From a virus (taxonomy: Duplodnaviria > Caudoviricetes): a stretch of DNA of 32,156 bases. The number at the start of each line of letters is the position of its first letter. Position 1 is the stretch's first letter. Made by a program: the position numbers and the translations under genes. Below are positions 5,593-32,156 of the stretch, one piece after another. The DNA is taken from the IMG/VR virus record IMGVR_UViG_3300030395_000158, positions 1-32,156 of that record, one strand, 5' to 3'. The notes under the pieces are model-generated. The model was not told the origin of the DNA. It worked only from the letters and a program-made list of their open reading frames with translations, and ran no database searches.

Positions 5593-6100
5593 TAAAATAG
5601 TTATACATTGTACCGCTACAAAAGAAGGTAATAATGTAAGTCCAGCTACTATAAAAAAGTGGCATTTAAATCGTGGTTTTTCAGATATAGGTTATCATTA
5701 TATCATAGGCATCGAAGGTAAAATAAATGCTGGTAGACCAGTATCAAGAGCTGGAGCGCACGTTAAGAACGGTAATAGCACAAGTATTGGAATAGCATAT
5801 ACTGGTGGCTTAGATTCTAACGGTAAAGCAAAAGATACAAGAACAGATGCACAAAAAGCATCATTAATTAAAATACTTAAAGTATTAAAAAACATTTATC
5901 CACAAGCAAGCATTCATGGCCATAGAGATTATTCACCTGACAAAGATGGCGATGGAGTAGAGGAACACGAGTTTATGAAGCAATGCCCGTGCTACAATGC
6001 GGAATTAGAAGCATATGAGCTTGGATTACAACCAAAATCATTCAAACCAAAAACAAAAAAAGTAAAGGATAAATTAAATGGAAAAAAACAATCAAACTAA
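5579..6100 (+). CDS. N-acetylmuramoyl-L-alanine amidase endolysin (Amidase_2, T7 lysozyme-like)
   Basis: IVIHCTAT, DIGYHY, GAHVK..N..SIGI, GHRD and K.CP motifs. Confidence 0.93.
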   Translation: MRKVNKIVIHCTATKEGNNVSPATIKKWHLNRGFSDIGYHYIIGIEGKINAGRPVSRAGAHVKNGNSTSIGIAYTGGLDSNGKAKDTRTDAQKASLIKILKVLKNIYPQASIHGHRDYSPDKDGDGVEEHEFMKQCPCYNAELEAYELGLQPKSFKPKTKKVKDKLNGKKQSN

Positions 6101-6194
6101 TTTAGAAGAATTAATTAAAAAACTGGAGAATGTACCAGTACCAGAAAGAACGTGCAATATAGATGATGAAACTTGCGAGAGCTGTAGTGGATGA
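6078..6194 (+). CDS. 38-aa peptide ending CNIDDETCESCSG (not in the ORF track)
   Basis: Hand translation MEKNNQTNLEELIKKLENVPVPERTCNIDDETCESCSG; fills the gap and its stop overlaps the next ATG (ATGA). Confidence 0.75.
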   Translation: MEKNNQTNLEELIKKLENVPVPERTCNIDDETCESCSG

Positions 6195-6669: not shown

Positions 6670-7734
6670 ATGAAATCACACAAAAAAAGGTGGAAAGATA
6701 AAGGTAATCCACGTTACCGCCTTAACTCAGATGAGGCGCAAATCATTAATGATTACAGAAGATTAAAACTTGAAGCAGAAGCAGAGGGTTTAAATCCTAA
6801 TGATATTCATAGTGGTTGGATAAAGAACAAAAAAGCCAGTTTATATTTTAAGAATCCTAATTTTAAGCAAAACGATTTAAAAGAGTTTAAGCAACAATTA
6901 TTAAAAGAACTTAAAGAATACTCTCCAAACTTTCAAAAGCTCGTTAAACCAAAGGTAAATGACGGTCATTGCTTATTAATATCACCAGCAGATATTCATA
7001 TTGGTAAATTATGTAAATCTTTTGTAAGTGGCGAAGAATATAATAAACAAATAGCAGTACAAAGAACTTTAGAAGCTATTGATGGTATATTACAAAAAAG
7101 TAACGGATTTAATATAGATAAATTAATACTTTGTATAGGTAATGATGTAATGCACATTGATACACCAAGCGGTAATAAAACAACAAAAGGAACTGTTCAA
7201 GATACAGATGGAATGTTTTTTGAGCATTTTCACATTGCAAAACGTTTATATATTAATATTATAGAAACATTAGTTAGTTTTTATCCAGATTTACACGTTG
7301 TTTATAATAGTAGTAATCACGATTATTTAACTGGATTTTGCTTGGCTGATACCATTGCAACTTACTTCAGAAATAGTAAAAACATAACTTTTGATATTAG
7401 TTTACAACATAGAAAATATTATACTTACTATGATAATTTAATTGGTAGTACGCATGGAGATGGTGCTAAATGGGATTTACTACCTTTACTAATGGCTGAT
7501 GAATGTTCTGAATGGAGTAGAACTAAATACAGATATATGTTTACGCACCATATACATCACAAGATAAGTAACAAAGATTTAGTTGGTTGCACGCTTGAAA
7601 GTTTTAGAAGTCCATCACCAGCGGATTCTTGGCATCATAAAATGGGTTATACTTCTTCTAATAACCAAGCAATAGAGGGTTTTATATTCTCTAAACGTAA
7701 TGGCCAAGTAGCCAGAATTACACATTTATTTTAG
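6670..7734 (+). CDS. Calcineurin-like metallophosphoesterase
   Basis: DIH, GND, NHD, HGD and HHIHH metal-binding motifs in canonical order. Confidence 0.8.
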   Translation: MKSHKKRWKDKGNPRYRLNSDEAQIINDYRRLKLEAEAEGLNPNDIHSGWIKNKKASLYFKNPNFKQNDLKEFKQQLLKELKEYSPNFQKLVKPKVNDGHCLLISPADIHIGKLCKSFVSGEEYNKQIAVQRTLEAIDGILQKSNGFNIDKLILCIGNDVMHIDTPSGNKTTKGTVQDTDGMFFEHFHIAKRLYINIIETLVSFYPDLHVVYNSSNHDYLTGFCLADTIATYFRNSKNITFDISLQHRKYYTYYDNLIGSTHGDGAKWDLLPLLMADECSEWSRTKYRYMFTHHIHHKISNKDLVGCTLESFRSPSPADSWHHKMGYTSSNNQAIEGFIFSKRNGQVARITHLF

Positions 7735-7786
7735 AATTAACATTTAATTGTTAATAAAGTTTTTAGTGTGTTTTGTAATTTGTATT

Positions 7787-7808
7787 ATAATTATATATAT
7801 ATTTACAT
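7787..7808 (+). promoter_or_regulatory. Putative early promoter motif, copy 1
   Basis: ATAATTATATATATATTTACAT, 21/22 identical to 17798-17819; contains TATATTTA, a variant of the Bacteroidota -7 element TAnnTTTG. Confidence 0.6.
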
Positions 7809-7831
7809 CATAAACTTAAAAACAAACAATT

Positions 7832-8029
7832 ATGACAACGCAAGATATATTAAATACAAGAAATCATAAAGGTATTATATCTTTAGAAAATGAAGCTGCT
7901 AATTGGTATGCTGTTTCAAGAGATAATATACATATGATTACTTTTTATAATACTGATGAAAATAAGTTTTATAAAAATGAATTATCTTTTGCTAAAAGAG
8001 TTGCACAATTAATTAAAAGAGGATATTAA
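7832..8029 (+). CDS. Hypothetical early protein
   Basis: 65 aa ORF after the promoter, with AAACAAACAATTATG start context. Confidence 0.75.
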   Translation: MTTQDILNTRNHKGIISLENEAANWYAVSRDNIHMITFYNTDENKFYKNELSFAKRVAQLIKRGY

Positions 8030-8055
8030 ACAATATAAACTAAAAACAAATAATT

Positions 8056-8211
8056 ATGAGTAGAGAAATATCATACACAACAAGAACCTTTTACGTACCA
8101 GCAGAGAAAATAGAAACGTTGGTAAAGTTTCAAGGCAAATGCAAAGAGAATGGGCATCGTTCATATTCTGAAGTATTATTAAAATTAATGGAACAATACA
8201 ACGAACAATGA
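8056..8211 (+). CDS. 51-aa putative ribbon-helix-helix DNA-binding protein (not in the ORF track)
   Basis: MSREISYTTRTFYVPAEKIETLVKFQGKCKENGHRSYSEVLLKLMEQYNEQ; beta strand followed by two helices with S.SEV turn; ATGA overlap with next gene. Confidence 0.6.
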   Translation: MSREISYTTRTFYVPAEKIETLVKFQGKCKENGHRSYSEVLLKLMEQYNEQ

Positions 8212-8525
8212 TACACTATCCACATCCTCACAACGAACACTACTACAATGAAAACATTAATCATTGGTGGGCTTATGAAACTAACAGATATTTACAAGAT
8301 AGATTGAGAAACTTAGTTATAAGAGTGAATTGGAACAAGCGTATTATCTGTAGAATACATTTATCAAATAATGATTTAGAAATACATAAACACAGGTTTG
8401 ATACATTTATTAAACAATTAGAAAACATTGAAAAGCAATTAAAAACTATTGCAGTTCAATATAATAAACGAAGAATGAAACAATTAAAAACTATATTTAC
8501 AAAAATTAGAAACTATGAAAATTAA
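8208..8525 (+). CDS. Hypothetical protein
   Basis: 105 aa ORF overlapping both neighbours. Confidence 0.7.
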   Translation: MIHYPHPHNEHYYNENINHWWAYETNRYLQDRLRNLVIRVNWNKRIICRIHLSNNDLEIHKHRFDTFIKQLENIEKQLKTIAVQYNKRRMKQLKTIFTKIRNYEN

Positions 8526-8889
8526 AGAATTAGCACAAAAATATGATTTATCAAAAGATGACTTTTGGGAATTAAAAAGAGGTACAAAAAGTATGTGGAT
8601 AATAACTCACGATGCTTGCGAAAAGATAGCAGCAAAAGAAAATATACAATTTGGCGCACCAACTATATACAGAGATAGCAACCAAGATGTTGCAATAGTA
8701 GGAGATGCAAAACGTGGAAACAAAGTTATTTGGAGTACAGGCGAAGCATCACCAAAAAATTGTAAAGCTCCATATATGTTTGCAATGGCTGAGAAACGTT
8801 TAAAAGATAGATTGATACTAAAATTAATTAATGCTTATGAGTATGGTATCTACTCAGATTCTGAAGCAGATAACTTTAAAAAACAATGA
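8515..8889 (+). CDS. Putative single-strand annealing protein (Rad52/Sak-like)
   Basis: GEASPKN...AMAEKR..DR.ILKL...GIYS..EAD pattern; next to exonuclease and SSB-like genes. Confidence 0.5.
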   Translation: MKIKELAQKYDLSKDDFWELKRGTKSMWIITHDACEKIAAKENIQFGAPTIYRDSNQDVAIVGDAKRGNKVIWSTGEASPKNCKAPYMFAMAEKRLKDRLILKLINAYEYGIYSDSEADNFKKQ

Positions 8890-8978
8890 TAGAAACAAAT
8901 ATTTTAGAAGTAATACAAGTGGTCTTGCTTTGCTTCACATTAGGATTAGTAATTGGAACAATAATTAAAAAGAAATAA
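8886..8978 (+). CDS. 30-aa membrane peptide (not in the ORF track)
   Basis: MIETNILEVIQVVLLCFTLGLVIGTIIKKK; ATGA overlap with upstream gene. Confidence 0.6.
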   Translation: MIETNILEVIQVVLLCFTLGLVIGTIIKKK

Positions 8979-8993
8979 ATTAAATTATATATT

Positions 8994-9713
8994 ATGAAAA
9001 AAAATAGATTAAGTTATTCATCTTTAGCTCAGTTTAAAAAATCTCCTAATCATTTATTAGCATACTGGAATAAAGAATTTAAAGCTACTGATGCTATGCA
9101 GTTTGGTAGTTTAATTCATAAGATGTTATTAGAACCAGATACATTTAATAATGATTTTGCAATATTTGAAGGCGCAAGAAGAGCTGGAAAACAATGGTTA
9201 GAGTTTAAAGAAGAAAACGAAGGCAAAACATTAATTAAGCAACAAGAATTAGATGATGCAAATAGAATAATTAACAATGCAATGTTACATCCAGTACTTA
9301 CTGAAATGATGCAAAATAAAATAGATACAGAAATTAAATTAGAATGGAGTTATAAAGATGTTAATTTTCTTGGCTTTGCAGACCTTTTAACAACGTTTAA
9401 CGGTAAGAAGTGTATAGTAGATATAAAAACCACTAATGATGCTGGAAAACGCTTTGAAAGAGATTTATATTATAATGATTATAAAATGCAGTTGGCAATG
9501 TATCAAGACCAATATGATAAAGATACAGATGTTTATATAGTAGCAATAGAAACTAAAATGCCATTTAATGTTCAGATATATAAATTAGATGAAAGTTTAT
9601 TATTTAAAGGTTGGATGGACTATGATTATTATACAGATAAATTTAAAGAATGGAACGGGGAGCCACAAGGTTACTCCAGTGACATTATAGAAATAAAAAC
9701 AGAAATAGAATAA
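8994..9713 (+). CDS. PD-(D/E)XK exonuclease (RecE/exonuclease VIII-like)
   Basis: LSYSSL, AMQFGSLIH, G.AD...IVDIKTT, Y.MQLAMY motifs. Confidence 0.85.
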   Translation: MKKNRLSYSSLAQFKKSPNHLLAYWNKEFKATDAMQFGSLIHKMLLEPDTFNNDFAIFEGARRAGKQWLEFKEENEGKTLIKQQELDDANRIINNAMLHPVLTEMMQNKIDTEIKLEWSYKDVNFLGFADLLTTFNGKKCIVDIKTTNDAGKRFERDLYYNDYKMQLAMYQDQYDKDTDVYIVAIETKMPFNVQIYKLDESLLFKGWMDYDYYTDKFKEWNGEPQGYSSDIIEIKTEIE

Positions 9714-9715
9714 AT

Positions 9716-9871
9716 ATGAAAAAACTTGCAATAATAGGAGGACTTAGTTTAATGACTGCTGGTGCAACTAATATGTTATGGCATAAGCAGAAGTTTAATA
9801 ACAACCCTAATACATTTGCAATAGCTACAGGAGGGTTTTTTGTAGCTGTAGGAATAACCTACAAATTTTAA
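9716..9871 (+). CDS. 51-aa exported/membrane peptide ending VGITYKF (not in the ORF track)
   Basis: MKKLAIIGGLSLMTAGATNMLWHKQKFNNNPNTFAIATGGFFVAVGITYKF; fills the gap exactly. Confidence 0.7.
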   Translation: MKKLAIIGGLSLMTAGATNMLWHKQKFNNNPNTFAIATGGFFVAVGITYKF

Positions 9872-9887
9872 TTAAAAACAAATAACA

Positions 9888-10151
9888 ATGGATAAAAAAG
9901 AAAAAACAATATATTGTGGTGGTGGTAAAATCATGAATGATAAATGGTTAAAAGTAACTATTAATCCAACTAAATTAGCTGATTACATACAAGAATACAA
10001 CGGTAACAAATTTATCAAACTAAATATTAATTTAAAAGATGAGCCAGACCAATATGGTAAAGATGTAAGTATTAGCATAGATACTTGGAAACCCGAACCA
10101 CAAGAAGAAACAAAAGCTGTAAGTGATACTTCAAACGATTTACCCTTTTAA
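9888..10151 (+). CDS. Putative single-stranded DNA-binding protein
   Basis: Small beta-rich protein with acidic C-terminal tail ending DLPF. Confidence 0.7.
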   Translation: MDKKEKTIYCGGGKIMNDKWLKVTINPTKLADYIQEYNGNKFIKLNINLKDEPDQYGKDVSISIDTWKPEPQEETKAVSDTSNDLPF

Positions 10152-10156
10152 ATATA

Positions 10157-10474
10157 ATGAAGCAATCAAAGGTCTTAGAAGCATTGGGTTTAACGTCACA
10201 GGATATACAAAATATGTTAATGAACGGTTACACAATGCCAGAGATAGCAAAGAAGTATAAAATAGAATACATTTCTTTGGTACAAGCATACAAAGTACAA
10301 AAGAAAAATTACAAGTATGTTGATTTTATACAACCAAAAAAAGAAGTAGAGGACATAAAAAAAGTGTCCTTTACTTTCGATAAACTATATAATGAAGAAG
10401 CTCTTAATGAAAATGAATTATTAGCTTATTATAAATACGAACAAAAACACAAAGCATATTATAAAATAAATTAA
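10157..10474 (+). CDS. Putative HTH DNA-binding protein
   Basis: GYTMPEIAKKYKI helix-turn-helix-like segment. Confidence 0.5.
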   Translation: MKQSKVLEALGLTSQDIQNMLMNGYTMPEIAKKYKIEYISLVQAYKVQKKNYKYVDFIQPKKEVEDIKKVSFTFDKLYNEEALNENELLAYYKYEQKHKAYYKIN

Positions 10475-10484
10475 AACTAAAATT

Positions 10485-11123
10485 ATGAAAGAAGTATTAA
10501 TAAATAATAAACAATATAAAGATTTAATTGCATTACAAAGTAATAAATCAAATAAAGCATTCTTAAATCGTATGATTGAATGTAAAAGTATAGAATTATA
10601 TAAAGATGATATTGTAGCAGATATAGGCGCATATATTGGTGAATATTCTATATATGCAATAAATCAAGGGGTTAAAAAAGTAATATCTTATGAAGCAACT
10701 CCAGAAACTTTTAATATTTTAAATAAAAATAAAAGAGGAAATATGATTGTAAATAATTTAGCTGTTGTCCCTGATAATAGAAGTAAAACTAAATTACATA
10801 TCTCTAAAGGTATCGGTGTTACAAATAGCATTGTAAAGTCAGATAGAAAAAGTCATTTTATTGAAATAGATTGTATTAGATATGAAAATGCTGTAAAAGA
10901 AGCAACTGTTGTTAAAATTGATGTTGAAGGTGCTGAATATGATTACAATATTATTCAAGATAATTTAAGGGCTATTATATTAGAGTTTCATCCAATTAAT
11001 AACTGTGACTGGATGCAAAACGCCAGAAAAATTATGGATGATATTAAAAACGCTGGATTTAAAAGTATTATAGAGCCAACATTTAAATCTGGATGGAATA
11101 TGGCTGCAAGTTTTAAAAGATAA
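10485..11123 (+). CDS. FkbM-family SAM-dependent methyltransferase
   Basis: DIGAYIG motif I, SYEA.P, KIDVEGAE, LEFH. Confidence 0.85.
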   Translation: MKEVLINNKQYKDLIALQSNKSNKAFLNRMIECKSIELYKDDIVADIGAYIGEYSIYAINQGVKKVISYEATPETFNILNKNKRGNMIVNNLAVVPDNRSKTKLHISKGIGVTNSIVKSDRKSHFIEIDCIRYENAVKEATVVKIDVEGAEYDYNIIQDNLRAIILEFHPINNCDWMQNARKIMDDIKNAGFKSIIEPTFKSGWNMAASFKR

Positions 11124-11127
11124 AATT

Positions 11128-11523
11128 ATGAAACAATACGATTTATTTAATAAGAAAAAAGATGATAATATAAAAAAATATACATCTAAAATTAAAGCGC
11201 CGATTTACGAACCTAAAAATAAAAAACCTCATATATTAGAGCTTTATGACAAAACTAAATATTTAAGACTATTAAGAGAAATTGATAGGTCTAACATATC
11301 AGTTGAGGATAAGCAATTTCTTGTAGACGCAGCTAAAAGACATATTGTATTTAATTATCAAAAGATAGCAGACTATTATGCGCATTCAAATAAGGATGTA
11401 CAACATTTAATGGAGCGTTCTGCTTTAGTAATTATTGACCTTGAAAAAGCTCTACAATACGGTTATATGAAACTTAGCTATGATATATCACAACAATTTT
11501 TAGAAGAAAAAACAAATGAATAA
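11128..11523 (+). CDS. Hypothetical protein coupled to the glycosyltransferase
   Basis: 131 aa (KYTSKIKAPIYEP...AAKRHIVFNYQKIADYYAH...SALVIID); overlaps the GT start. Confidence 0.7.
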   Translation: MKQYDLFNKKKDDNIKKYTSKIKAPIYEPKNKKPHILELYDKTKYLRLLREIDRSNISVEDKQFLVDAAKRHIVFNYQKIADYYAHSNKDVQHLMERSALVIIDLEKALQYGYMKLSYDISQQFLEEKTNE

Positions 11524-12391
11524 TAAAGATTTTGTTGCAATGATATTATCACACGGTAGACCTAATAATGTTTATACATATAAAACATTAAGAAAACATG
11601 GCTACACAGGCGACATAATAATTGTTGTAGATAACGAGGATAAAACAATAGAAGAATATAAAAAAAACTTTGAAAAAGTTGTTGTTTTTAATAAAGAAAA
11701 GATAGCTAAAGAAACAGATCAAGGGGATAATTTAAACGATTTAAGAACAACTACACACGCACGAAATGCTATGTTTAAAATTGCTAAATATTATAACTAT
11801 AAATATTTTATACAATTAGATGATGACTACACTGATTTTAGATATAGATATTTAATGGATAAATATATAACAACTTTAACTAAAGAGTATGACTGTAATG
11901 GAAAACTTAAAAACTTAGATAAAGCATTTAATACTTTATTAGAATTTTATAAAAAAATAAATGCAAAAAGTATAGCTATATCACAAGGTGGTGACTTTAT
12001 AGGTGGCGAAGGATGTGGTATGATTTCTAATTATGAAAGATTATCGCGAAAATGTATGAACAGTTTTATATGTTCTGTAGATAGACCTTTTAAATTTATA
12101 TCAAGACTTAATGAGGATGTTAATACCTATTTAAGTTTAGGAGCAAGAGGTGATTTATTTTTAACGTTACCTTATATAGGTTTAGAACAAAAATCAACAC
12201 AAGCTACATCTGGCGGAATGACTGATACATATCTTGATAATGGTACATATCAAAAAAGTTTCTTTTCTGTTATGTATTGTCCAAGCTTTGTTAAAATATC
12301 TTTAATGGGCGTTAGTAATAAAAGATTACATCATACTGTGGACTGGAATAAAGCAGTACCAAAAATAATATCAGAAGAATACAAAAAATAA
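11516..12391 (+). CDS. GT-A fold glycosyltransferase, TET-associated (TAGT)/GREB1-like
   Basis: ILSHGRP, ARN, LDDD, NEDV, GGMT, KSF and RLHH motifs. Confidence 0.75.
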   Translation: MNNKDFVAMILSHGRPNNVYTYKTLRKHGYTGDIIIVVDNEDKTIEEYKKNFEKVVVFNKEKIAKETDQGDNLNDLRTTTHARNAMFKIAKYYNYKYFIQLDDDYTDFRYRYLMDKYITTLTKEYDCNGKLKNLDKAFNTLLEFYKKINAKSIAISQGGDFIGGEGCGMISNYERLSRKCMNSFICSVDRPFKFISRLNEDVNTYLSLGARGDLFLTLPYIGLEQKSTQATSGGMTDTYLDNGTYQKSFFSVMYCPSFVKISLMGVSNKRLHHTVDWNKAVPKIISEEYKK

Positions 12392-12416
12392 AATCAAACT
12401 AAATAAAATCAAACAA

Positions 12417-12902
12417 ATGAAAAAAGAAATATATAATGAGAATTATCACAATAATAAATTTAATTTTTTAATTAGCAAACTATTTGACGAAAGACGAACA
12501 ATAATGGACTTTGATACTTTTATATCAGCAGGAAATAAATTAGCTTTCTTAATAGACCATAAGCAGGAGGACCCATGGGATGAAATTAGTATTAACTTAT
12601 TAAAAAATCTTATGAACTTTAATAATTTAAAACTAAATAATAATTGTCTTTTAAAATCTTTTGTAGTTAGAAGCAATATACATTTATTTAATAAAGATAC
12701 AGAGGCAAAAACATCTTGTTTTACAACTATTTATGAGTTAATAGACTTTAATAAAGATTTAATGTATAAAAAAACAAACGAATTAAACCCTAAAGAATTT
12801 ATTAAAAACTCTTATACTTTAAGAAGTGACGAAGAATTAAAAAACTTTTTTAATCCAGAAACTCACGAAAAATTTAAACTTGATATAATAAATAGATTAT
12901 GA
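12417..12902 (+). CDS. Hypothetical protein, possible PD-(D/E)XK-fold nuclease
   Basis: MDFD-x11-IDHK spacing resembles a restriction-endonuclease-fold active site; weak. Confidence 0.5.
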   Translation: MKKEIYNENYHNNKFNFLISKLFDERRTIMDFDTFISAGNKLAFLIDHKQEDPWDEISINLLKNLMNFNNLKLNNNCLLKSFVVRSNIHLFNKDTEAKTSCFTTIYELIDFNKDLMYKKTNELNPKEFIKNSYTLRSDEELKNFFNPETHEKFKLDIINRL

Positions 12903-13306
12903 AAGAATTACCATATTTTAAATTTTATCCTAATCAGTGGATAACTGGCAGTATATCATTTATGGATTTAGATGTACAGGGTGCGTTTATAAAAGTTTGC
13001 TGCTACTACTGGAGCAAAGAATGTAACGTTACAAGAAAACAAATAAAAGCATTAATACCAAAACAATGGAGTGTATTAGTAGATGCTGAGTTATTTAAGA
13101 TAGAAAACGAATCTATTAGCATTAAATGGTTAGATGAACAATATCAAGAGAGATTAAAAGAGCATAAAAGAAATGTTTTAAATGGTCGCAAGGGTGGGTT
13201 AAGCAGGGGTAAAGCATTAAGAAAAGAAGAGAAAAGAAAAGATAAATATGCAAATGATAATTTATTAAAAGTAAATGATGAAGTGCAAAAACTTCTTGAC
13301 CAATGA
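12899..13306 (+). CDS. Putative replication initiator (DUF1376/YdaU-like winged helix)
   Basis: LPYFKFYPNQW..G.I...GAFI..C.YW N-terminus, NGRKGG linker; directly upstream of the helicase. Confidence 0.7.
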   Translation: MKELPYFKFYPNQWITGSISFMDLDVQGAFIKVCCYYWSKECNVTRKQIKALIPKQWSVLVDAELFKIENESISIKWLDEQYQERLKEHKRNVLNGRKGGLSRGKALRKEEKRKDKYANDNLLKVNDEVQKLLDQ

Positions 13307-14148
13307 TATTAGAAGATAAAGCTACTATACCATATTTAAAAGCATTTAAAGAAGGTAGAATTAAAAAAGGTATTGGCATTAATTGTTTATTAGATGATTA
13401 CTTTCTTTATAAGAATGGTAATTTTAATATGTTTCTTGGCTTAGATAATGTTGGTAAAACTAATTTTATATTATGGTACTTAACTGCTTTAAGTAAATTA
13501 CATGGTAAGAAATGGTGTATCTGGAGTGGCGAAAACAATGCTGGGCAACTTAAAAGAGATATAATTCAAATGTGGACTGGCGAAGCTATTAAAGATTTAA
13601 ACGAATATTTATTTTATCACGATGAAATTAGTAAGTATTTTAAATTTATTGATAATAGAAAACTTTACAATCATAAAGAACTATTAGAAATATTTGATAA
13701 AGAAGATTGTGATGGTGCATTAATAGACCCTTATACAGGTATTAACCACGATAGAAGAATATCACAATTTGAAAGAAATTATCAAGTTTGCAATGATGTT
13801 AGAGAGTTTTGCAATAGAACAGGCAAAACAGTATTTATTGCAATGCACCCACAAACAGAAGCAGCAAGAAGAGTATATCCACCAGACCATCAATTAAATG
13901 GACATATACAACCACCACGTAAAGCTGATTGTGAAGGTGGGCAAGTATTTCCAAATAGAGTAGATAATTTTATTTGTTTACATAGATTAATTTCACACGA
14001 TAAATTGTGGATGATGACAGAAGTACACGTATATAAAATCAAAGATAAAGAAACAGGTGGTAAGCCAACAATGTTAGGAGAGCCATTAAGATTTGATTAT
14101 AATAGTGGTTTAGGTTTTACAATTGGTGGTAATAACGTATTAAAATAA
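13303..14148 (+). CDS. DnaB/T7 gp4-like (SF4) replicative helicase
   Basis: Walker A GLDNVGKT, SGEN, Walker B LIDP, MHP, K.K...G motifs. Confidence 0.85.
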   Translation: MILEDKATIPYLKAFKEGRIKKGIGINCLLDDYFLYKNGNFNMFLGLDNVGKTNFILWYLTALSKLHGKKWCIWSGENNAGQLKRDIIQMWTGEAIKDLNEYLFYHDEISKYFKFIDNRKLYNHKELLEIFDKEDCDGALIDPYTGINHDRRISQFERNYQVCNDVREFCNRTGKTVFIAMHPQTEAARRVYPPDHQLNGHIQPPRKADCEGGQVFPNRVDNFICLHRLISHDKLWMMTEVHVYKIKDKETGGKPTMLGEPLRFDYNSGLGFTIGGNNVLK

Positions 14149-14154
14149 AAAACA

Positions 14155-14394
14155 ATGAGATATAAATATGAAGATATAGAAAAGTTTATGGAGTTTAAAA
14201 CTTGGACTGATAAAGATAAAATAGATAAATTACTTGAAATAGATTGTAGTTTATATGCACATCTTGGCAAAGATTCTACTAAATCAGAGAAAGAAGAAGT
14301 TAAAAGAAAAAGTATAGATATATACAGAACGATAAAAACATTAGATAAAAAAATGGGTGATTTATTTTTATACTCAGAAGATTTAAAACAATGA
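14155..14394 (+). CDS. Hypothetical protein
   Basis: 79 aa ORF in operon. Confidence 0.75.
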   Translation: MRYKYEDIEKFMEFKTWTDKDKIDKLLEIDCSLYAHLGKDSTKSEKEEVKRKSIDIYRTIKTLDKKMGDLFLYSEDLKQ

Positions 14395-14654
14395 ATGATT
14401 TAGATTACACAATAACAAAGAACAAATTAGAAATACTGCTTTTAAAAGCTCAAGAAGGTTTAAAGAGTGGTAAAGTAACGCAAAGCAAATTAGATGCTGT
14501 AGAAACGCTCCAAGACACTTTAAAATGTATGTTAGAGCTGAGGTTTACAATTGATGAACTAAATAAAAAACAAAGTTTGTTAACAATGCAAAATATAAAA
14601 TCTTATAAAGAAACTGCAGAACTTAAGAAAAAATTTAATACTTTTAAAAAATAA
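14391..14654 (+). CDS. Hypothetical coiled-coil protein
   Basis: 87 aa, ATGA overlap with upstream gene. Confidence 0.75.
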   Translation: MNDLDYTITKNKLEILLLKAQEGLKSGKVTQSKLDAVETLQDTLKCMLELRFTIDELNKKQSLLTMQNIKSYKETAELKKKFNTFKK

Positions 14655-14664
14655 ACTATAAATT

Positions 14665-14757
14665 ATGTATATAACATTATTATTAACAATAACACATTTA
14701 ACCTGTTTTATATTAGGTATAATAGTAACACACATCATTGAAAAAAAATTTAAATAA
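14665..14757 (+). CDS. 30-aa membrane peptide (not in the ORF track)
   Basis: MYITLLLTITHLTCFILGIIVTHIIEKKFK. Confidence 0.55.
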   Translation: MYITLLLTITHLTCFILGIIVTHIIEKKFK

Positions 14758-14914
14758 AAAGAAAAGAACGCTTAATGAGTACAGACAAACAAAGGACTCG
14801 TACTATATTAGCCCTAATACTCCTGTTGAGTATAATATTGCTCTATTGTGTAGGATATATCCTAATGATACCGAGCTTGGAGCTATAATTAGAAAACACT
14901 TCCAAAAGATATGA
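14738..14914 (+). CDS. 58-aa hypothetical protein, TTG start (not in the ORF track)
   Basis: ...RTLNEYRQTKD...YPNDTELGAIIRKHFQKI; stop overlaps the ATG at 14911; start uncertain. Confidence 0.5.
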   Translation: MKKNLNKKKRTLNEYRQTKDSYYISPNTPVEYNIALLCRIYPNDTELGAIIRKHFQKI

Positions 14915-15261
14915 GTTTAAATGCAAATCAAAAAGGTAAAAGATTCGAGTTAAAAATTGCAAAAGATTTAGCAAAGAAATTCGATACTAATATTAGAAGA
15001 ACACCCAATAGCGGTGGTTTAAGTATTAAAGGAGATATTATGACTACAAGCGGAATATTATCTGAATATAGCTGGGAGTGTAAAAACCAAGAGAAATTAA
15101 ATATCTGGAAAGCATTAGAACAAAGTAAAGGAGATGCAAGAGGAACACTAAAAACACCTGTGGTTGTATTTACTAAAAACTTTGAAAAAGATTATGTTGC
15201 TTTACAATATGATGACTTTGTTAATTTACTTCTTGAATTAAATGAGTACAGAAGTAGATAA
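14911..15261 (+). CDS. Putative Holliday junction resolvase (archaeal Hjc-like PD-(D/E)XK)
   Basis: KGKRFE...RTPNSGG...GD...ECK motifs. Confidence 0.75.
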   Translation: MSLNANQKGKRFELKIAKDLAKKFDTNIRRTPNSGGLSIKGDIMTTSGILSEYSWECKNQEKLNIWKALEQSKGDARGTLKTPVVVFTKNFEKDYVALQYDDFVNLLLELNEYRSR

Positions 15262-15751
15262 TATATTAAATATATTAGTAAAGGATGACGATGTATGGCT
15301 TAAGATGGCTGAGGAAATAAGCGGTAACAGCAAAGTACAAGCAAAAGATTTATTACACGATTTCTACATAGCTTTACATAGCAAAGTTGATAACGGTAAA
15401 GTAAAAATTAACGATATTCTATATAACGATTCTTTAAATAAAGCGTTTATATATAAGATGATGCACAATATATTTATTGATAACATAAGAAATGACAAAG
15501 ATATATTAATAGATAAAGAACTAAAAAACATTATAGAAGCAGATAATGAACCATACATTGATATTGAAAAAGTAGTTGATGAAATAGTAGATGGCTTTTA
15601 CTGGTTTGATAGAAAATTATTTAATTTATATAGAAAAAAATTCCATAGTATAAGAAAACTATCCGCAGCAACTAATATATCACACGTAGTTGTATGGAGA
15701 ACTATAAACAATTGTATTAAAGAAATTAAAAAAAAAATTAATGAAAAGTAA
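15242..15751 (+). CDS. ECF-like RNA polymerase sigma factor
   Basis: Region-2-like AKDLLHDFYIAL...AFIYKMMHNIFIDNIR and region-4 HTH SIRKLSAATNISHVVVWRTI; 169 aa. Confidence 0.75.
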   Translation: MSTEVDNILNILVKDDDVWLKMAEEISGNSKVQAKDLLHDFYIALHSKVDNGKVKINDILYNDSLNKAFIYKMMHNIFIDNIRNDKDILIDKELKNIIEADNEPYIDIEKVVDEIVDGFYWFDRKLFNLYRKKFHSIRKLSAATNISHVVVWRTINNCIKEIKKKINEK

Positions 15752-16118
15752 AGGTTTAGGAGATACAGTAGAAAAGATAACAAAAGCTACAGGTATAAAA
15801 CAAGCTACTGATTGGATATTTGATAAACTTGGAAAAGATTGCGGATGTGATGCAAGGAAGAAAAAGCTAAATTCTATGTTTCCATATAAAGTAGAATGTT
15901 TAAATGAAGAAGAATATATATTTCTAAAAGGATTCTTCTCAATAAATAAAAACATAGTAAACAATATAGAACAAAAACAACTATTAACAATACATAATAG
16001 AGTGTTTAGCACCAACAAAAAACCATCAAGCTGTGGTAGTTGTGTAAAAGATTTAGTTAATACTATGAAAAGATTATATAATGAATATGAATACGAAAGA
16101 GAAAGTAAAAGCAATTGA
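15741..16118 (+). CDS. Cys-rich hypothetical protein
   Basis: GLGDTVEKIT..TGIK...DCGC..R and SSCGSC motifs. Confidence 0.75.
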   Translation: MKSKGLGDTVEKITKATGIKQATDWIFDKLGKDCGCDARKKKLNSMFPYKVECLNEEEYIFLKGFFSINKNIVNNIEQKQLLTIHNRVFSTNKKPSSCGSCVKDLVNTMKRLYNEYEYERESKSN

Positions 16119-18021: not shown

Positions 18022-18033
18022 AACCAAAACAAA

Positions 18034-18213: not shown

Positions 18214-18263
18214 AAAATACCAAGAGGCAGCCGATGTATGTTAGCGTAAGTCCTCAGAAATTT

Positions 18264-18293
18264 AAGAGCTACTGTAAAAGGTAGCTTTTTTTT
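18264..18293 (+). terminator. Rho-independent terminator
   Basis: AGCTAC-tgtaaaag-GTAGCT stem followed by a T run. Confidence 0.8.
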
Positions 18294-18295
18294 AT

Positions 18296-18303
18296 TATAT
18301 TTG
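18296..18303 (+). promoter_or_regulatory. Bacteroidota -7 promoter element
   Basis: TATATTTG matches TAnnTTTG; a second copy lies at 18387-18394. Confidence 0.5.
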
Positions 18304-18309
18304 AAATAA

Positions 18310-18387
18310 GCAAATTATAGCCAATGTTAATTTGCGTTTTGGTTTAAAGTAGGTAGTCGGCGAAAGAGCGTTACCTACTTTTTTTTT
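18310..18387 (+). ncRNA. Candidate small RNA (hairpin, GU-rich seed, terminator)
   Basis: GCAAATTA/TAATTTGC stem, GTTTTGGTTT, then AAAGTAGGTAG/TTACCTACTTT stem and T run; bounded by an upstream terminator and promoter element; no credible ORF. Confidence 0.55.
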
Positions 18388-27974: not shown

Positions 27975-28005
27975 ATATAACAGTTAACGTTTTCAAACGT
28001 TTATA
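27975..28005 (+). promoter_or_regulatory. Putative late (ECF-type) promoter of the head operon
   Basis: ATATAAC-N13-AAACGTTTATA, repeated at 18396-18426. Confidence 0.7.
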
Positions 28006-28021
28006 GATATATACTCAAATT

Positions 28022-28639
28022 ATGAAAGCAAACGAAATACTAAACAAAATAAAAAATATTGTTGGTGAAAAAGTTGAACTTTCTGAAGAAAAAATAGAAA
28101 TGGCTGAAATTACATTAGAAAACGGAACTGTATTAGTTGCAGAAAAGTTTGAAGCTGGAGAATCTATATTTATTAAAACCGAAGATGAGCAAATTGCTTT
28201 ACCAATTGGTGAATATAAATTAGAAGAAGGCAAAGTTTTAGTTGTATCTGAAGAAGGTTTAATTGACAGTATTAAAGAAGCTGCTGAAGAAGCGGTTGAA
28301 GAAGAATTATCTGAAGAATCTAATGAAGAAGTAGAAACTGAATTAGAGGAAGAAGAAAAAGAAGAATTGGAATATGTAACCAAAGAAGAATTTAAATCTG
28401 CTGTTGAAGAAATCAAAGGTATGATTGAAAAAATGGGTTACAAAGACAAAGAAGAAATGAAGGAAGAAGTAATAGAAGAAGTTAAAGAAGAAAAAGAAGA
28501 ACTTTCTGCTGTTGCTCCTGAACCTGTAAAACATAATCCTGAAGCTGAGGTTGATAATAAAGTGAATTTTCATATTGCAAGCAATAGAACACAAACAACT
28601 AAAGACAGGGTTTTTGATAAAATTTTTAACAATAATTAA
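28022..28639 (+). CDS. Putative capsid scaffolding protein
   Basis: Very Glu-rich; directly upstream of the capsid gene. Confidence 0.7.
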   Translation: MKANEILNKIKNIVGEKVELSEEKIEMAEITLENGTVLVAEKFEAGESIFIKTEDEQIALPIGEYKLEEGKVLVVSEEGLIDSIKEAAEEAVEEELSEESNEEVETELEEEEKEELEYVTKEEFKSAVEEIKGMIEKMGYKDKEEMKEEVIEEVKEEKEELSAVAPEPVKHNPEAEVDNKVNFHIASNRTQTTKDRVFDKIFNNN

Positions 28640-28650
28640 TATAAAATAAA

Positions 28651-29586
28651 ATGGCGACAACAACAAGTATATCAAGTACTTACGCTGGAGAATTTGCAGG
28701 AAAATATATTTCTGCTGCTCTTTTAAGTGCTAACACAATTGATAAAGGCGGTATAGAAGTAATGCCTAATATCAAGTATAAATCTACTATGAAAAAAGTA
28801 GCTACTGATGCAAATGTAATTAAAAACGCTTCTTGCGATTTTGATGCAACTGCTACAGTAACATTAACTGAAAGATTATTACAACCAGAGGAGTTTCAAG
28901 TAAACTTACAATTCTGTAAGCAAGATTTTGTTGACGATTGGGAAGCGGCTCAAATGGGATATTCTGCATTTGATAAAATGCCACCTAAATTTTCTGATTT
29001 CATTATTGGCCACGTTGCTGGTTTGGTAGCTGAAAAAACTGAGCAAAACATTTGGGAAGGTGTTAACGCTAATGCTGGTGAATTTGATGGTTTAGTAACT
29101 TTAGCTTTAGCTGATAGTGATGTAATTGACGTTGCATCTCACGCTGCTGTAACTGCTGCTAACGTAATTGATAAATTAGGTTCTATTGTAGATGCAGTAC
29201 CTTCTGCACTTTACAATAAAGAAGATTTACACATTTACGTATCACAAAACATTGCAAGAGCTTATGTAAGAGCTTTAGGTGGTTTTGCTACTTCTATTGG
29301 TTCAAATGGTGTTAACGCACAGGGAACACAATGGTATAACGCTGGTGGACAACTATCTTTTGATGGTGTGAAAATCTTCGTTGCTAATGGTTTAGCTGAT
29401 GATACTGCAATGGCTGCTCAAAAGAGTAACTTATATTTTGGTACTGGTTTACTTTCGGACTCACAAGAAGTAAAGGTTCTGGATATGTCAGACCTTGATG
29501 GTTCGCAGAATGTTAGAGTAATAATGAGATACACAAGCGCAGTTAACTACGGAATAGGTTCTGATATAGTTTTATACCACGCCTAA
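28651..29586 (+). CDS. Major capsid protein
   Basis: 311 aa; YAGEFAGKYI, EQNIWEG..A..GEFDG; codon usage of a highly expressed gene; follows the scaffold. Confidence 0.85.
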   Translation: MATTTSISSTYAGEFAGKYISAALLSANTIDKGGIEVMPNIKYKSTMKKVATDANVIKNASCDFDATATVTLTERLLQPEEFQVNLQFCKQDFVDDWEAAQMGYSAFDKMPPKFSDFIIGHVAGLVAEKTEQNIWEGVNANAGEFDGLVTLALADSDVIDVASHAAVTAANVIDKLGSIVDAVPSALYNKEDLHIYVSQNIARAYVRALGGFATSIGSNGVNAQGTQWYNAGGQLSFDGVKIFVANGLADDTAMAAQKSNLYFGTGLLSDSQEVKVLDMSDLDGSQNVRVIMRYTSAVNYGIGSDIVLYHA

Positions 29587-29601
29587 TAATTAATTAATAA
29601 C

Positions 29602-29623
29602 AAGGGGGCTGAAATGCTCCCTT
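29602..29623 (+). terminator. Stem-loop after capsid gene (weak terminator or mRNA stabiliser)
   Basis: AAGGGGGC-tgaaat-GCTCCCTT; poor U tail. Confidence 0.55.
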
Positions 29624-29641
29624 AATTTAAAACAATAACAA

Positions 29642-30190
29642 ATGGCATGTGATTTAACGGCTGGTAGAAAAGTACCTTGTAAAGATGTAATTGGCGGTAT
29701 TGTTAGAGCTTGGTTCTGCGATTTTGGAGAGCTTGGAACTGTAACAAAAACTGCTGATGAAATTACAGATATGACAGGTACGATAACTCTGCTACAATAC
29801 GATTTAAAAGGTACTAATAGTTTAGAAACTGCTATTACCTCAAGTAGAGAGAATGGAACAACATTCTTTGAAGAAACATTAACTTTAACACTACCTAAAT
29901 TATCTAAAGAAGATAATAAGGAACTGAAACTGATGGCTTACGGAAGACCACACGTTTGTGTAGAAGATAGAAACGGAAACTTCTTTTTATGTGGATTAGA
30001 ACATGGAATGGAAGTGACCGGCGGTAGTATAGCTACAGGAACAGCTTTCGGGGATTTAAGCGGTTACTCACTAACATTAACTGGACAAGAATTAGAACCA
30101 GCTAACTTTATTGCTGGTGGTACTTCTGCTGACCCTCTTGCTGGAATGAGTTCTGCAACTGTAACAGTTACTGTAGGTACAAATAGTTAA
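29642..30190 (+). CDS. Major tail (tube) protein
   Basis: MACDLT.GR..PCKD.IGG, SRENGTTFFE, GTAFGDLSGYSLTLTG; 182 aa. Confidence 0.7.
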   Translation: MACDLTAGRKVPCKDVIGGIVRAWFCDFGELGTVTKTADEITDMTGTITLLQYDLKGTNSLETAITSSRENGTTFFEETLTLTLPKLSKEDNKELKLMAYGRPHVCVEDRNGNFFLCGLEHGMEVTGGSIATGTAFGDLSGYSLTLTGQELEPANFIAGGTSADPLAGMSSATVTVTVGTNS

Positions 30191-30195
30191 AAAAG

Positions 30196-30272
30196 ACGCG
30201 ATTAATATAATTGTGTGATTCATAATATATAGTTTGATTGAGGGGTGGAAGTGATTAGCCACCCCTTTTTTA
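30196..30272 (+). ncRNA. Candidate 3'-UTR antisense RNA (hairpin, seed, terminator)
   Basis: ACGCGATTA/TAATTGTGT stem; 30219-30239 complementary to 8978-8998; terminator follows. Confidence 0.55.
30241..30272 (+). terminator. Rho-independent terminator
   Basis: AGGGGTGG...CCACCCCT stem followed by a T run. Confidence 0.8.
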
Positions 30273-30282
30273 TTAAAAAAAT

Positions 30283-30636
30283 ATGCAAATATTAACTACA
30301 AGTGGCACACGAATTATTAACTTTATACCAAGAGAAACAATAACTGGTAGTAAAACTTATAAATTAGTGATAAAATCAGAAGCTCAAAATAAAGTTATAG
30401 CAACAGATAATAATGCAACATTTTCTGAACTGGATTACTATTATCAATATTCAACTACACAAGCATTAATTGAAAATAATTACTATACTATTACAATCAC
30501 CAATACAACAGATAACGCAATAATTTTTAAAGATAAAATGTACTGTTCTGACCAAACACTTTCAGATTATGAAATTTCAAATGGTGTTTATATAGAACAA
30601 AGTACAGGAGATAACAACTTTGTATATTATGGATAA
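30283..30636 (+). CDS. Putative head closure/structural protein
   Basis: 117 aa, beta-rich; between tail tube and portal genes. Confidence 0.5.
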   Translation: MQILTTSGTRIINFIPRETITGSKTYKLVIKSEAQNKVIATDNNATFSELDYYYQYSTTQALIENNYYTITITNTTDNAIIFKDKMYCSDQTLSDYEISNGVYIEQSTGDNNFVYYG

Positions 30637-32156
30637 TCTACACTTAATTCAACTTAATCAATATGAAAGGCCTACTATTACAGAAGAACGTAATAAAAAT
30701 TATGTATCAATAGGCGATAACAATGATTATTATCAAAACTTGATAGATTGCTATATGGATAGCACTACAAATCAAGCGGTAATAAATGGCGTTGTTAATC
30801 AAATATATGGCAAAGGGTTAGATGCTACTGATTCTAATAAAAAACCAGACCAGTATGCACAAATGAAAAGCTTAATTAAAAACGATTGCTTAAGAAAAGT
30901 TTGCCAAGATTTAAAACTATTAGGAGAAGCAAGTTTTCAAGTAACATACACAGGTAATAAAATATCAGCTATTACACACTTTCCTCGTGAAACTTTAAGA
31001 GCTGAAAAGATGAACGATAAAGGTGAAATAAAAAATTATTATTATGCACCTGATTGGAGTAAAGTACAAAGAAATAGTAAATTAAAAAAGTTTCCTGTTT
31101 TTGGTAGTGGCGCACAAAATGAAATATATATTGTAAAAAGATATGTTACTGGATTTTACTACTATTCACCTGCGGATTATAATACCGCCTACGCCACACT
31201 TGAGAACGAGATTGCTTGTTATTTAATTAATGATACTCAAAATGGTTTTAGTGGTACAAAGGTGGTTAATTTTAATAATGGTGTGCCAGATAGAGAAAAG
31301 CAATTAGCTATTAAGAATGATGTAATGCAAAAGCTAACTGGTAGCTATGGTGAAAAAGTAATTGTTGCATTTAATAATAATGCAGAAAGTAAAACAACTG
31401 TTGAGGATATACCACTAACAGATGCGCCAAATCATTATGAATTTCTTAGTTCTGAGTGTTCTAAAAAAATAATGTTAACACATAGAGTTACTTCACCTTT
31501 ATTAATTGGTTTAAGAGATGGTAATAATGGTTTAGGAAACAATGCAGATGAGATACAAAATGCAAGTAGATTGTTTAATAATGTTGTTATACAACCTTAC
31601 CAAAACTTACTAATTGATTCTATTGATGAAATGTTAGCTGTTAATGGTATTAGTTTAAATCTATATTTTAAAACTATTGAGCCATTAGAATTTATGGAGT
31701 TAGATGATATTGATAATGCAGAAGTAGAAGAAGAACAAACAGGAATAAAAGATGAGGAAACTGAATTAGAATTAATGGTTGCTAATTCTAAAAGAACTGC
31801 TTTAGATGAATTAATTGATTTAGGTATTAATGAAGAAGAATTATTGAAAGATTATGAAATGGTTCATAGTGCTGAAGTTGATTATGATTTAGAAGAAGAA
31901 CTTGATTTTGTAGTAACTGAAATAAATAAAACATCTAAAAAAGAGTTTGCAAGTACAGGTAGTGCTAAACCATATAGAGAGAGTGAACAAGATGGAACTT
32001 CTAAAAAGAAAACAGAAGAAGGTACTGAGTTTTTAGTTAGATATATGTATGAAGCAGCACCTAATCCAGCAAGTAGCTCAAGAACATTTTGCGATAAAAT
32101 GATGGCTGCTAAAAAAGTATATAGAAAAGAAGATATTATTGAGATGGGTAAAAAAC
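30629..32156 (+). CDS. Portal protein (N-terminal part; continues to 368; not in the ORF track)
   Basis: Open frame MDNLHLIQLNQYERP...STTNQAVING...IYGKG...NGFSG..VVNFNNGVP...HRVTSPLLIG...VIQPYQ, followed by an acidic linker. Confidence 0.85.
   Translation, partial: MDNLHLIQLNQYERPTITEERNKNYVSIGDNNDYYQNLIDCYMDSTTNQAVINGVVNQIYGKGLDATDSNKKPDQYAQMKSLIKNDCLRKVCQDLKLLGEASFQVTYTGNKISAITHFPRETLRAEKMNDKGEIKNYYYAPDWSKVQRNSKLKKFPVFGSGAQNEIYIVKRYVTGFYYYSPADYNTAYATLENEIACYLINDTQNGFSGTKVVNFNNGVPDREKQLAIKNDVMQKLTGSYGEKVIVAFNNNAESKTTVEDIPLTDAPNHYEFLSSECSKKIMLTHRVTSPLLIGLRDGNNGLGNNADEIQNASRLFNNVVIQPYQNLLIDSIDEMLAVNGISLNLYFKTIEPLEFMELDDIDNAEVEEEQTGIKDEETELELMVANSKRTALDELIDLGINEEELLKDYEMVHSAEVDYDLEEELDFVVTEINKTSKKEFASTGSAKPYRESEQDGTSKKKTEEGTEFLVRYMYEAAPNPASSSRTFCDKMMAAKKVYRKEDIIEMGKK
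32058..32155. repeat. Terminal direct repeat (right copy)
   Basis: 98-bp identity to 1-98; last base 32156 (C) differs from base 99 (G). Confidence 0.95.

Follow-up and report, generated by a model that had tools for sequence, protein, structure and literature searches.

The locus examined here raises the question whether the 3' untranslated region (UTR) of a phage structural operon could act as an antisense RNA on the start codon of an early gene of the same phage. The window, i.e. the whole stretch of 32,156 nucleotides that was analysed, proved to be a complete phage genome, circular and 32,057 bp in length, with 99 nt repeated at the ends of the stretch. Its GC content is 30% and its genes lie on the plus strand, with the replication and recombination region at about 6670-16118 and the structural genes elsewhere in the window. 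No integrase, repressor or antirepressor was matched among the 46 window proteins scanned against PHROGs, about a third of which gave no match of any kind. The methyltransferase, ParB-like and glucosyltransferase genes standing in a row at 10485-12391 suggest DNA modification; a similar cassette is present in Nonlabens phage P12024L, where P12024S carries other genes.

The UTR belongs to gene 29642, the product of which is likely the tail tube or major tail protein, as judged from its position and from an Atlas lead. The gene lies directly downstream of the virion structural gene 28651-29586, and the named Atlas clusters nearest to its product are tail tube families (0.83-0.86, to be taken as a lead only). 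PDB and Pfam gave no match for this product. The only cultured phages displaying a homologue of this gene, hereafter the tube gene, are P12024S and P12024L (38% identity). Together with the A-rich leaders of the window, which are devoid of Shine-Dalgarno sequence, this makes a host of the Flavobacteria type likely. The phage family is widespread and marine, with a likely host range in Flavobacteria; 3,902 tube homologues were counted, and the group was estimated at about 1,900-2,300 IMG/VR stretches.

The UTR element and its complement at the exonuclease start

The following features define the element and its main predicted target.

27998-28005, plus strand: CGTTTATA motif, putative late promoter of the 28022-30190 operon (from motif position)
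29642-30190, plus strand: gene carrying the UTR (PHROG 19091, unknown function)
30196-30216, plus strand: 5' hairpin (from folding), predicted to keep the seed open
30219-30239, plus strand: seed, complementary to the exonuclease mRNA over its 15-nt spacer, the AUG and the 2 nt that follow
30240-30271, plus strand: intrinsic terminator-like hairpin with U-run (from folding)
8978-8998, plus strand: main predicted target, i.e. the spacer from the stop of a 30-aa ORF to the exonuclease ATG, plus ATGAA
8994-9713, plus strand: exonuclease VIII (RecE)-like PD-(D/E)XK nuclease, DUF3799 (PHROG 412, E 1.9e-41; PF12684, E 1.7e-23)

The element is present in one copy per genome, between the tube stop codon and the mRNA terminator. 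Folding bore out the hairpin and terminator of the original prediction, with a z-score of -3.94 and none of 200 shuffles as stable. Two-sided changes were detected at five of the nine terminator pairs in a 12-sequence alignment. In the first hairpin of relatives, an invariant GTGT arm pairs with a 5' arm which reads ACGC, ACAT, ACAC or GCAC. This upstream pairing reached a probability of at least 0.65 in 14 of 22 unique UTRs; the GTGT arm pairs with the seed instead in five, and the remaining three are mixed. RNAalifold on a MAFFT alignment did not recover the first hairpin, the arms of which were misaligned, and its support comes from single-sequence ensembles. The seed has a mean unpaired probability of 0.69, and an alternative fold which hides it lies within about 1 kcal/mol of the open one. 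As the competing arm is located 6-14 nt after the stop codon, it may be speculated that a terminating ribosome favours the closed state. A further hairpin, lacking a U-run, was observed at 29587-29641 between the capsid-candidate and tube genes, and many relatives have a hairpin at the same place.

The CGTTTATA motif occurs in six copies, of which one more lies just before 18432 and the other four within genes. A similar motif precedes structural genes of P12024S, and a sigma-like gene is located at 15242; we infer that CGTTTATA acts as a promoter. Sigma-70 promoter scans were uninformative, and no host-type -7 promoter motif was found upstream of the UTR element.

The predicted pairing of 30219-30239 with 8978-8998 was recovered as an ungapped 21-nt duplex with 19 Watson-Crick and two G:U pairs, which covers the whole 15-nt spacer after the 30-aa ORF. 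It is the longest ungapped plus-strand complement of 30196-30272, the next best having 15 nt. When all 44 starts of the window were ranked by cofold, the exonuclease start came first at -18.1 kcal/mol, followed by the next at -12.7. The PHROG and Pfam matches agree on the assignment of the target as a RecE-like exonuclease. The distance of about 21 kb between both sites, as originally given, is valid for the linear map, but the genome is circular and they are 10.8 kb apart round the circle. The 30-aa ORF (8886-8978) is hydrophobic, its stop abuts the exonuclease leader, and relatives vary in the sequence preceding the spacer. Of the exonuclease leader, 15 nt recur exactly at 3150-3164, within the coding sequence of gene 2134, which is probably due to chance.

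The AT-richness of the genome had been named as a source of coincidental matches. This caution was justified for match length across the genome, since helices with at least 19 Watson-Crick pairs appeared 10 times in 40 local genome shuffles; match length alone, being unremarkable against these shuffles, was therefore rejected as evidence. It did not apply to placement at starts. None of 300 dinucleotide-shuffled UTRs reached 19 Watson-Crick pairs against the 45 start windows (maximum 15), so equal matches at starts are rare in shuffled sequence. As an internal control, the spacer before the post-capsid hairpin, which is A-rich, paired at best at -7.7.

Conservation and joint change in relatives

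The comparison was done with 53 genomes including the window, all of them long contigs, whole or nearly whole. They comprise 24 genomes of seed types A to E (16 of type A) and 29 distant relatives; P12024S and P12024L, for which the terminator was not placed automatically, and G033, with its tube gene split over two pieces, were excluded. By eye, the hairpin-seed-terminator UTR was recognisable in 49 of 79 scorable tube loci, the 30 more distant ones having short UTRs. Two tube loci (L422 and L425) display tandem repeats with a unit of about 27 nt in place of the usual UTR after the tube stop. In seven distant genomes (G075, G078, G079, G081, G082, G085 and G088) a second UTR type was observed at another locus, with TTTCATA and a U/G-rich run before the terminator.

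The exact 21-mer was found at 102 loci in IMG/VR, namely 96 times in this UTR before the terminator, four times at the exonuclease start in mirror orientation and twice at other ATGs. In this collection, exact mirror copies of the seed recur at the exonuclease and at no other gene. One exact mirror (L598) lies at the start of a small membrane-like gene on another viral contig. Start windows make up about 5% of the DNA, and in 21 of the 53 genomes the best genome-wide ungapped complement of the segment from stop to terminator was located in one of them, as compared to 23 of 636 shuffled seeds. Types A to E account for 17 of these (from 24 genomes), with the exonuclease as target in 13, the portal in two and the orthologue of gene 12899 in two, and the distant genomes for only four out of 29. 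Using RNAduplex on the 23 genomes of types A to E which hold an exonuclease, its start ranked 1-2 in 12 and 3-7 in 10; in the last one (G068, of the type C lineage) the start was miscalled, and the corrected one pairs at -17.7.

Seeds and leaders were seen to change jointly. The type B genome (G019) has the seed TTTTTTTCATAGTTT, and its exonuclease leader plus start is an exact 15-nt mirror of it. Type C comprises G044, G045, G066 and G100, with an exonuclease that is 48% identical; in the first three of them a different 14-nt seed, located in the loop of the first hairpin, mirrors the exonuclease start. Type C keeps two seeds, the old one included, and both leader types are found on its exonucleases, G068 having the old one. 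In type D (G017) one seed base is altered jointly with the leader, and the pairing has a bulge. The seeds of types B, C and D pair with their own leaders at -14.5 to -20.8 kcal/mol, whereas on the same leaders type A UTRs reach only -6.2 to -11.2. The covariation is asymmetric, the type B seed pairing at -21.5 with type C leaders and at -15.8 with its own. In the trees, type D is sister to B, and type C stands on its own. As the genomes are related, the counts given here are not independent, and about two to three independent joint changes can be considered.

The complementarity is thus kept in relatives, as the original prediction required, with two exceptions. In type E (G047, a partial contig) the seed is A-like and the exonuclease, among 30 starts, ranks only sixth by RNAduplex and eleventh by cofold; in five type A genomes (G004, G005, G007, G008 and G010) the exonuclease pairing contains an internal 3x3 loop and ranks 3-7. 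Conservation of the exonuclease leader (0.83) did not exceed that of the other leaders (0.52-0.95), and the case consequently rests on placement and joint change.

These data also bear on the possibility that the stretch has no pairing role and is a U/G-rich element for protein binding or stability, which mirrors leaders because those of Bacteroidota are A/C-rich. U/G-rich stretches, often with TTCAT, indeed precede many terminators of the wider family (none was seen before the post-capsid hairpin), and the distant genomes show a weak preference or none for their own starts. In addition, the 17-nt target was found at unrelated ATGs in seven out of a sample of 401 genomes of the G101 phylum, and can thus be regarded as a leader-like word. 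Composition-matched shuffles, however, failed to reproduce the matches between UTR and starts, and this explanation accounts neither for the lineage-specific joint changes nor for the repeated mirror copies at the exonuclease. We consider it unlikely.

A similarly low probability is given to a pairing that takes place as predicted but is aimed outward, either at host mRNAs or at the early mRNAs of related phages that arrive later (superinfection exclusion). The seed is near-invariant, with 96 identical loci, while the leaders come in 14 variants, and own-seed pairing is in some genomes poorer than in relatives. Against this stands the observation that in types A and C the seeds match the leaders of their own genome better than those of other seed groups. 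Moreover, no conserved host target was detected in 401 genomes, a sample outside which the actual host may lie.

The polarity of the RNA was considered as well. For 14 unique leaders (at least 80% protein identity), the 294 cells of the alignment with the seed comprise 263 Watson-Crick pairs, seven G:U, one A:C and 23 others. The tube and exonuclease genes lie on one strand in all 23 genomes of types A to E that hold both, and the plus-strand fold was the more stable one in 10 out of 10 UTRs folded. Plus-strand polarity of the RNA is supported. Use of both copies as DNA, i.e. as sites of one protein or as inverted recombination sites, is very improbable. Joint change would be compatible with a protein and its DNA sites, and a nuclease of recombination type is encoded in the phage, but both sites are non-palindromic and always include the ATG, their orientation is fixed (the UTR copy antisense, the gene copy sense), and the deviations are more often G:U than A:C, on genes sharing one strand.

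It is scarcely credible that the stretch is the start, or a remnant, of a small minus-strand gene, in spite of a 43-codon minus-strand ORF starting at 30223 with a good leader and of the minus-strand gene that P12024S has behind its tube gene. The corresponding ORF of relatives varies between 5 and 54 codons and occurs in all three frames, RNA structure favours the plus strand, and the minus-strand gene of P12024S is situated past the terminator, which is itself preceded by a CAT-plus-U/G stretch. The minus-strand ORF and a moron remnant were rejected on these grounds. The CAT-plus-U/G stretch before the tube terminator matches the leader of gp24 in P12024S and of gp25 in P12024L; at -12.4, and only tied second among 59 starts in P12024S, this match is a weak lead.

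Further targets and a second element near 18310

Beside the exonuclease, three other sites of the window were considered as targets of the seed.

30620-30634, plus strand: second candidate target at the portal start, 15 nt with three G:U pairs (ATG at 30629)
12392-12401, plus strand: weaker candidate target in the leader of early gene 12417, at -25 to -16 of the start (rank 2 in the window)
6670-6683, plus strand: doubtful complement with a bulge, at the start of a gene for a DNA-repair exonuclease, within coding sequence

The shorter complements listed in the original prediction as falling at other starts were of unequal value, and the 15-nt match at the portal start was not among them. Start codons are covered by 6670-6683 (with one bulge) and by 871-880, and 12392-12401 is in a leader, but 6089-6099 was rejected as a start, as it corresponds to codons 4-8 of a 38-aa ORF. 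That ORF (6078-6194) follows the amidase and displays a CxxC-like tail at its end. Pairing at 6670-6683 requires the opening of the first hairpin, and the site falls outside the top five once opening costs are counted. The 12417 leader ranks first in G002 by RNAduplex and in G045 by cofold. A complement of 13-15 nt to the 5' arm of the hairpin, found in G007 and G013, was rejected as it lies inside coding sequence.

The portal gene (598 aa, labelled from PHROG 33693 on its C-terminal part) spans the origin of the circular genome and starts about 390 nt downstream of the seed. Its start ranks first, at -24 kcal/mol, in G004, G005, G008 and G010, and it outranks a present exonuclease in about 3-4 of the 24 genomes of types A to E; other early starts come first in several more. 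The main role of the seed might hence be sought within the late operon, where upon read-through it would pair with the portal start and lower portal relative to capsid and tube. In all 16 type A genomes the portal ranks 1-9, and it comes first in five, one of which has no exonuclease on its contig. By eye, no late-promoter-like motif was seen in type A from the terminator to the next gene, unlike in distant relatives, so that the portal would depend on read-through. The portal drops, however, to rank 26 in type B, 10-37 in C and 13 in E, and the element nevertheless persists there and changes with early leaders. The portal leader doubles as the last coding stretch of gene 30283, and some of the complementarity may thus be due to codons. 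Such a main role within the late operon is judged improbable.

Even with exonuclease and portal omitted, pairing relative to shuffles was stronger for early than for late starts in all 24 genomes of types A to E. Restricting the comparison to leaders gave the same bias in 22 of 24; it was weak in type A and clear in types B, D and E and in some of type C. The early bias is partly confounded by ATGAA starts, which are found in 12 of 20 early genes and eight of 25 others. The proposal of a one-to-one silencing of the exonuclease is partly supported by the complementarity, the joint change and the shuffles, but is too narrow, as portal and other early starts compete and type E is mismatched.

An element near 18310 had been proposed to form an antisense network with the UTR. 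Two features were located there.

18296-18387, plus strand: free-standing hairpin-seed-terminator unit with a promoter-like motif (from folding; seed at about 18336-18345)
18022-18030, plus strand: complement of the 18310 seed in the leader of small gene 18034 (9-mer match)

The motif before this unit is presumably a promoter motif of the host -7 type. The unit was identified in 11 of the 16 type A genomes, and its seed differs from that of the UTR. The 9-nt complement is present in small-gene leaders of nine of the 11 genomes with the unit (eight by gene call and G011 by context) and in none of the five without it. The energy of this pairing alone is not significant, being equalled by 3 to 23 of 30 shuffles. 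The idea of a network is supported by the matching leaders. The small genes, located 280-550 nt upstream of the unit, are variable, and their N-termini differ between genomes. The non-coding stretch 18214-18295 has a GAGGCAGCCG...CGTAAGTCCTC motif before a terminator, which recurs in several relatives and is possibly another structured RNA.

Proposed mechanism and relation to known RNAs

The feature is real and is well supported by comparison of the sequences. With some reserve, it is considered probable that the late 3' UTR carries an anti-start-codon RNA resembling FopS/GibS, which would act on several early genes and chiefly on the exonuclease. The 3'-terminal part of what is likely the capsid-tail-tube mRNA, either within the whole mRNA or as a cut 3' fragment, would act in trans as an antisense RNA. 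It would mask the exonuclease mRNA at its start codon and leader and, with weaker pairing, other early mRNAs, and early-gene translation would drop once late transcription starts. This scheme presumes a late operon with an abundant transcript, a seed that is accessible in vivo, and a block of initiation upon pairing; a duplex of 15-21 bp could plausibly form independently of a chaperone. RecE has nuclease activity, and the benefit may lie in halting a nuclease that could attack genome ends during packaging.

Bacteroidota do without Shine-Dalgarno sequences, and flavobacterial initiation relies on upstream adenines and low mRNA structure (PMC6847099). In Bacteroides, pairing at start codons represses translation (PMC11697453). 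Four marine RNA runs, compared over 28000-31500, gave continuous cover of the capsid-tube region, as assembled contigs which have neither strand nor ends, are mostly below 95% identical, and thus from relatives, and come with no DNA control. At the element, the pieces of X2 and X5 stop at 30210 and 30200, respectively, X8 gives no cover, and one X1 contig (29858-30771) crosses it.

The closest likeness is to FopS/GibS of Bacteroides thetaiotaomicron, which have a single-stranded seed before an intrinsic terminator, pair near the start codons of several mRNAs and block translation, in a phylum without classical chaperones (PMC11697453). FopS-14 is derived from a 3' UTR, and a FopS copy was reported in a phage (PMC11697453). 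FopS are multicopy host sRNAs with own promoters which act on polysaccharide-use operons (PMC11697453), whereas the element of the window is single-copy in the UTR of a phage structural operon, has an extra 5' hairpin and a longer duplex, and has genes of its own phage as predicted targets. Rfam gave no match over the window element (E<=1) or over 12 relative loci (E<=5); the FopS/GibS model is stated as deposited there (PMC11697453), and the copy searched may not hold it. As regards membership of FopS/GibS, the structure agrees, and a match to the Rfam model and many promoter-bearing paralogues were not found.

The C4 antisense RNA is known in Rfam as RF01695 (number quoted second-hand). C4 of P1/P7 is likewise phage-encoded, acts in trans, is cut from a longer transcript and occludes the ribosome-binding site of a gene of its own phage, RNA and target co-changing between phages (PMC5320573). 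It differs in being a three-stem RNase P substrate with two loop seeds, involved in immunity and lysogeny of temperate phages (PMC5320573). The window element has a linear seed before a terminator and a two-hairpin fold, in a genome without integrase or repressor match; neither a three-stem fold, nor an Rfam match, nor an immunity region among the 46 proteins places it with C4. Other base-pairing phage RNAs tune infection as well, namely PreS (lambda), VpdS (VP882), StxS, 24B_1, OOP, sar and aQ. They are encoded mainly by temperate phages or prophages, act as cis-antisense RNAs or in association with Hfq, and often have host targets; the available portions of both sources describe none of them as a structural-operon 3' UTR acting on early starts of its own phage (10.1101/2024.10.31.621285, PMC12197685). 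With 3'-UTR-derived trans-acting sRNAs the element shares the position in a UTR and, bar type E and the looped type A genomes, a conserved start-complementary seed with compensatory change. No description of it was found in the literature searched. The seed was absent from six searched supplementary files of PMC10690425 (10,006 candidate viral RNAs), others of which may catalogue it without a target.

A wider version of the proposed mechanism is put forward only tentatively. The tail of the most abundant late mRNA would be a chaperone-free late-to-early off-switch, by which Bacteroidota phages exploit the initiation of their hosts without Shine-Dalgarno sequence; it would silence early leaders sharing a lineage-specific word and also hit early mRNAs of superinfecting kin, and a ribosome at the tube stop might flip its two-state fold; the 18310 unit would be a second such RNA, for the accessory-gene cassette. 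The model is directly testable, as seed, targets and natural compensatory pairs are named. Early shut-off in lytic phages has mostly been explained by proteins acting on transcription. If true, the present mechanism would let assembly feed back on replication through RNA alone, in a large phage group, and would offer a compact design for translational silencers in Bacteroidota.
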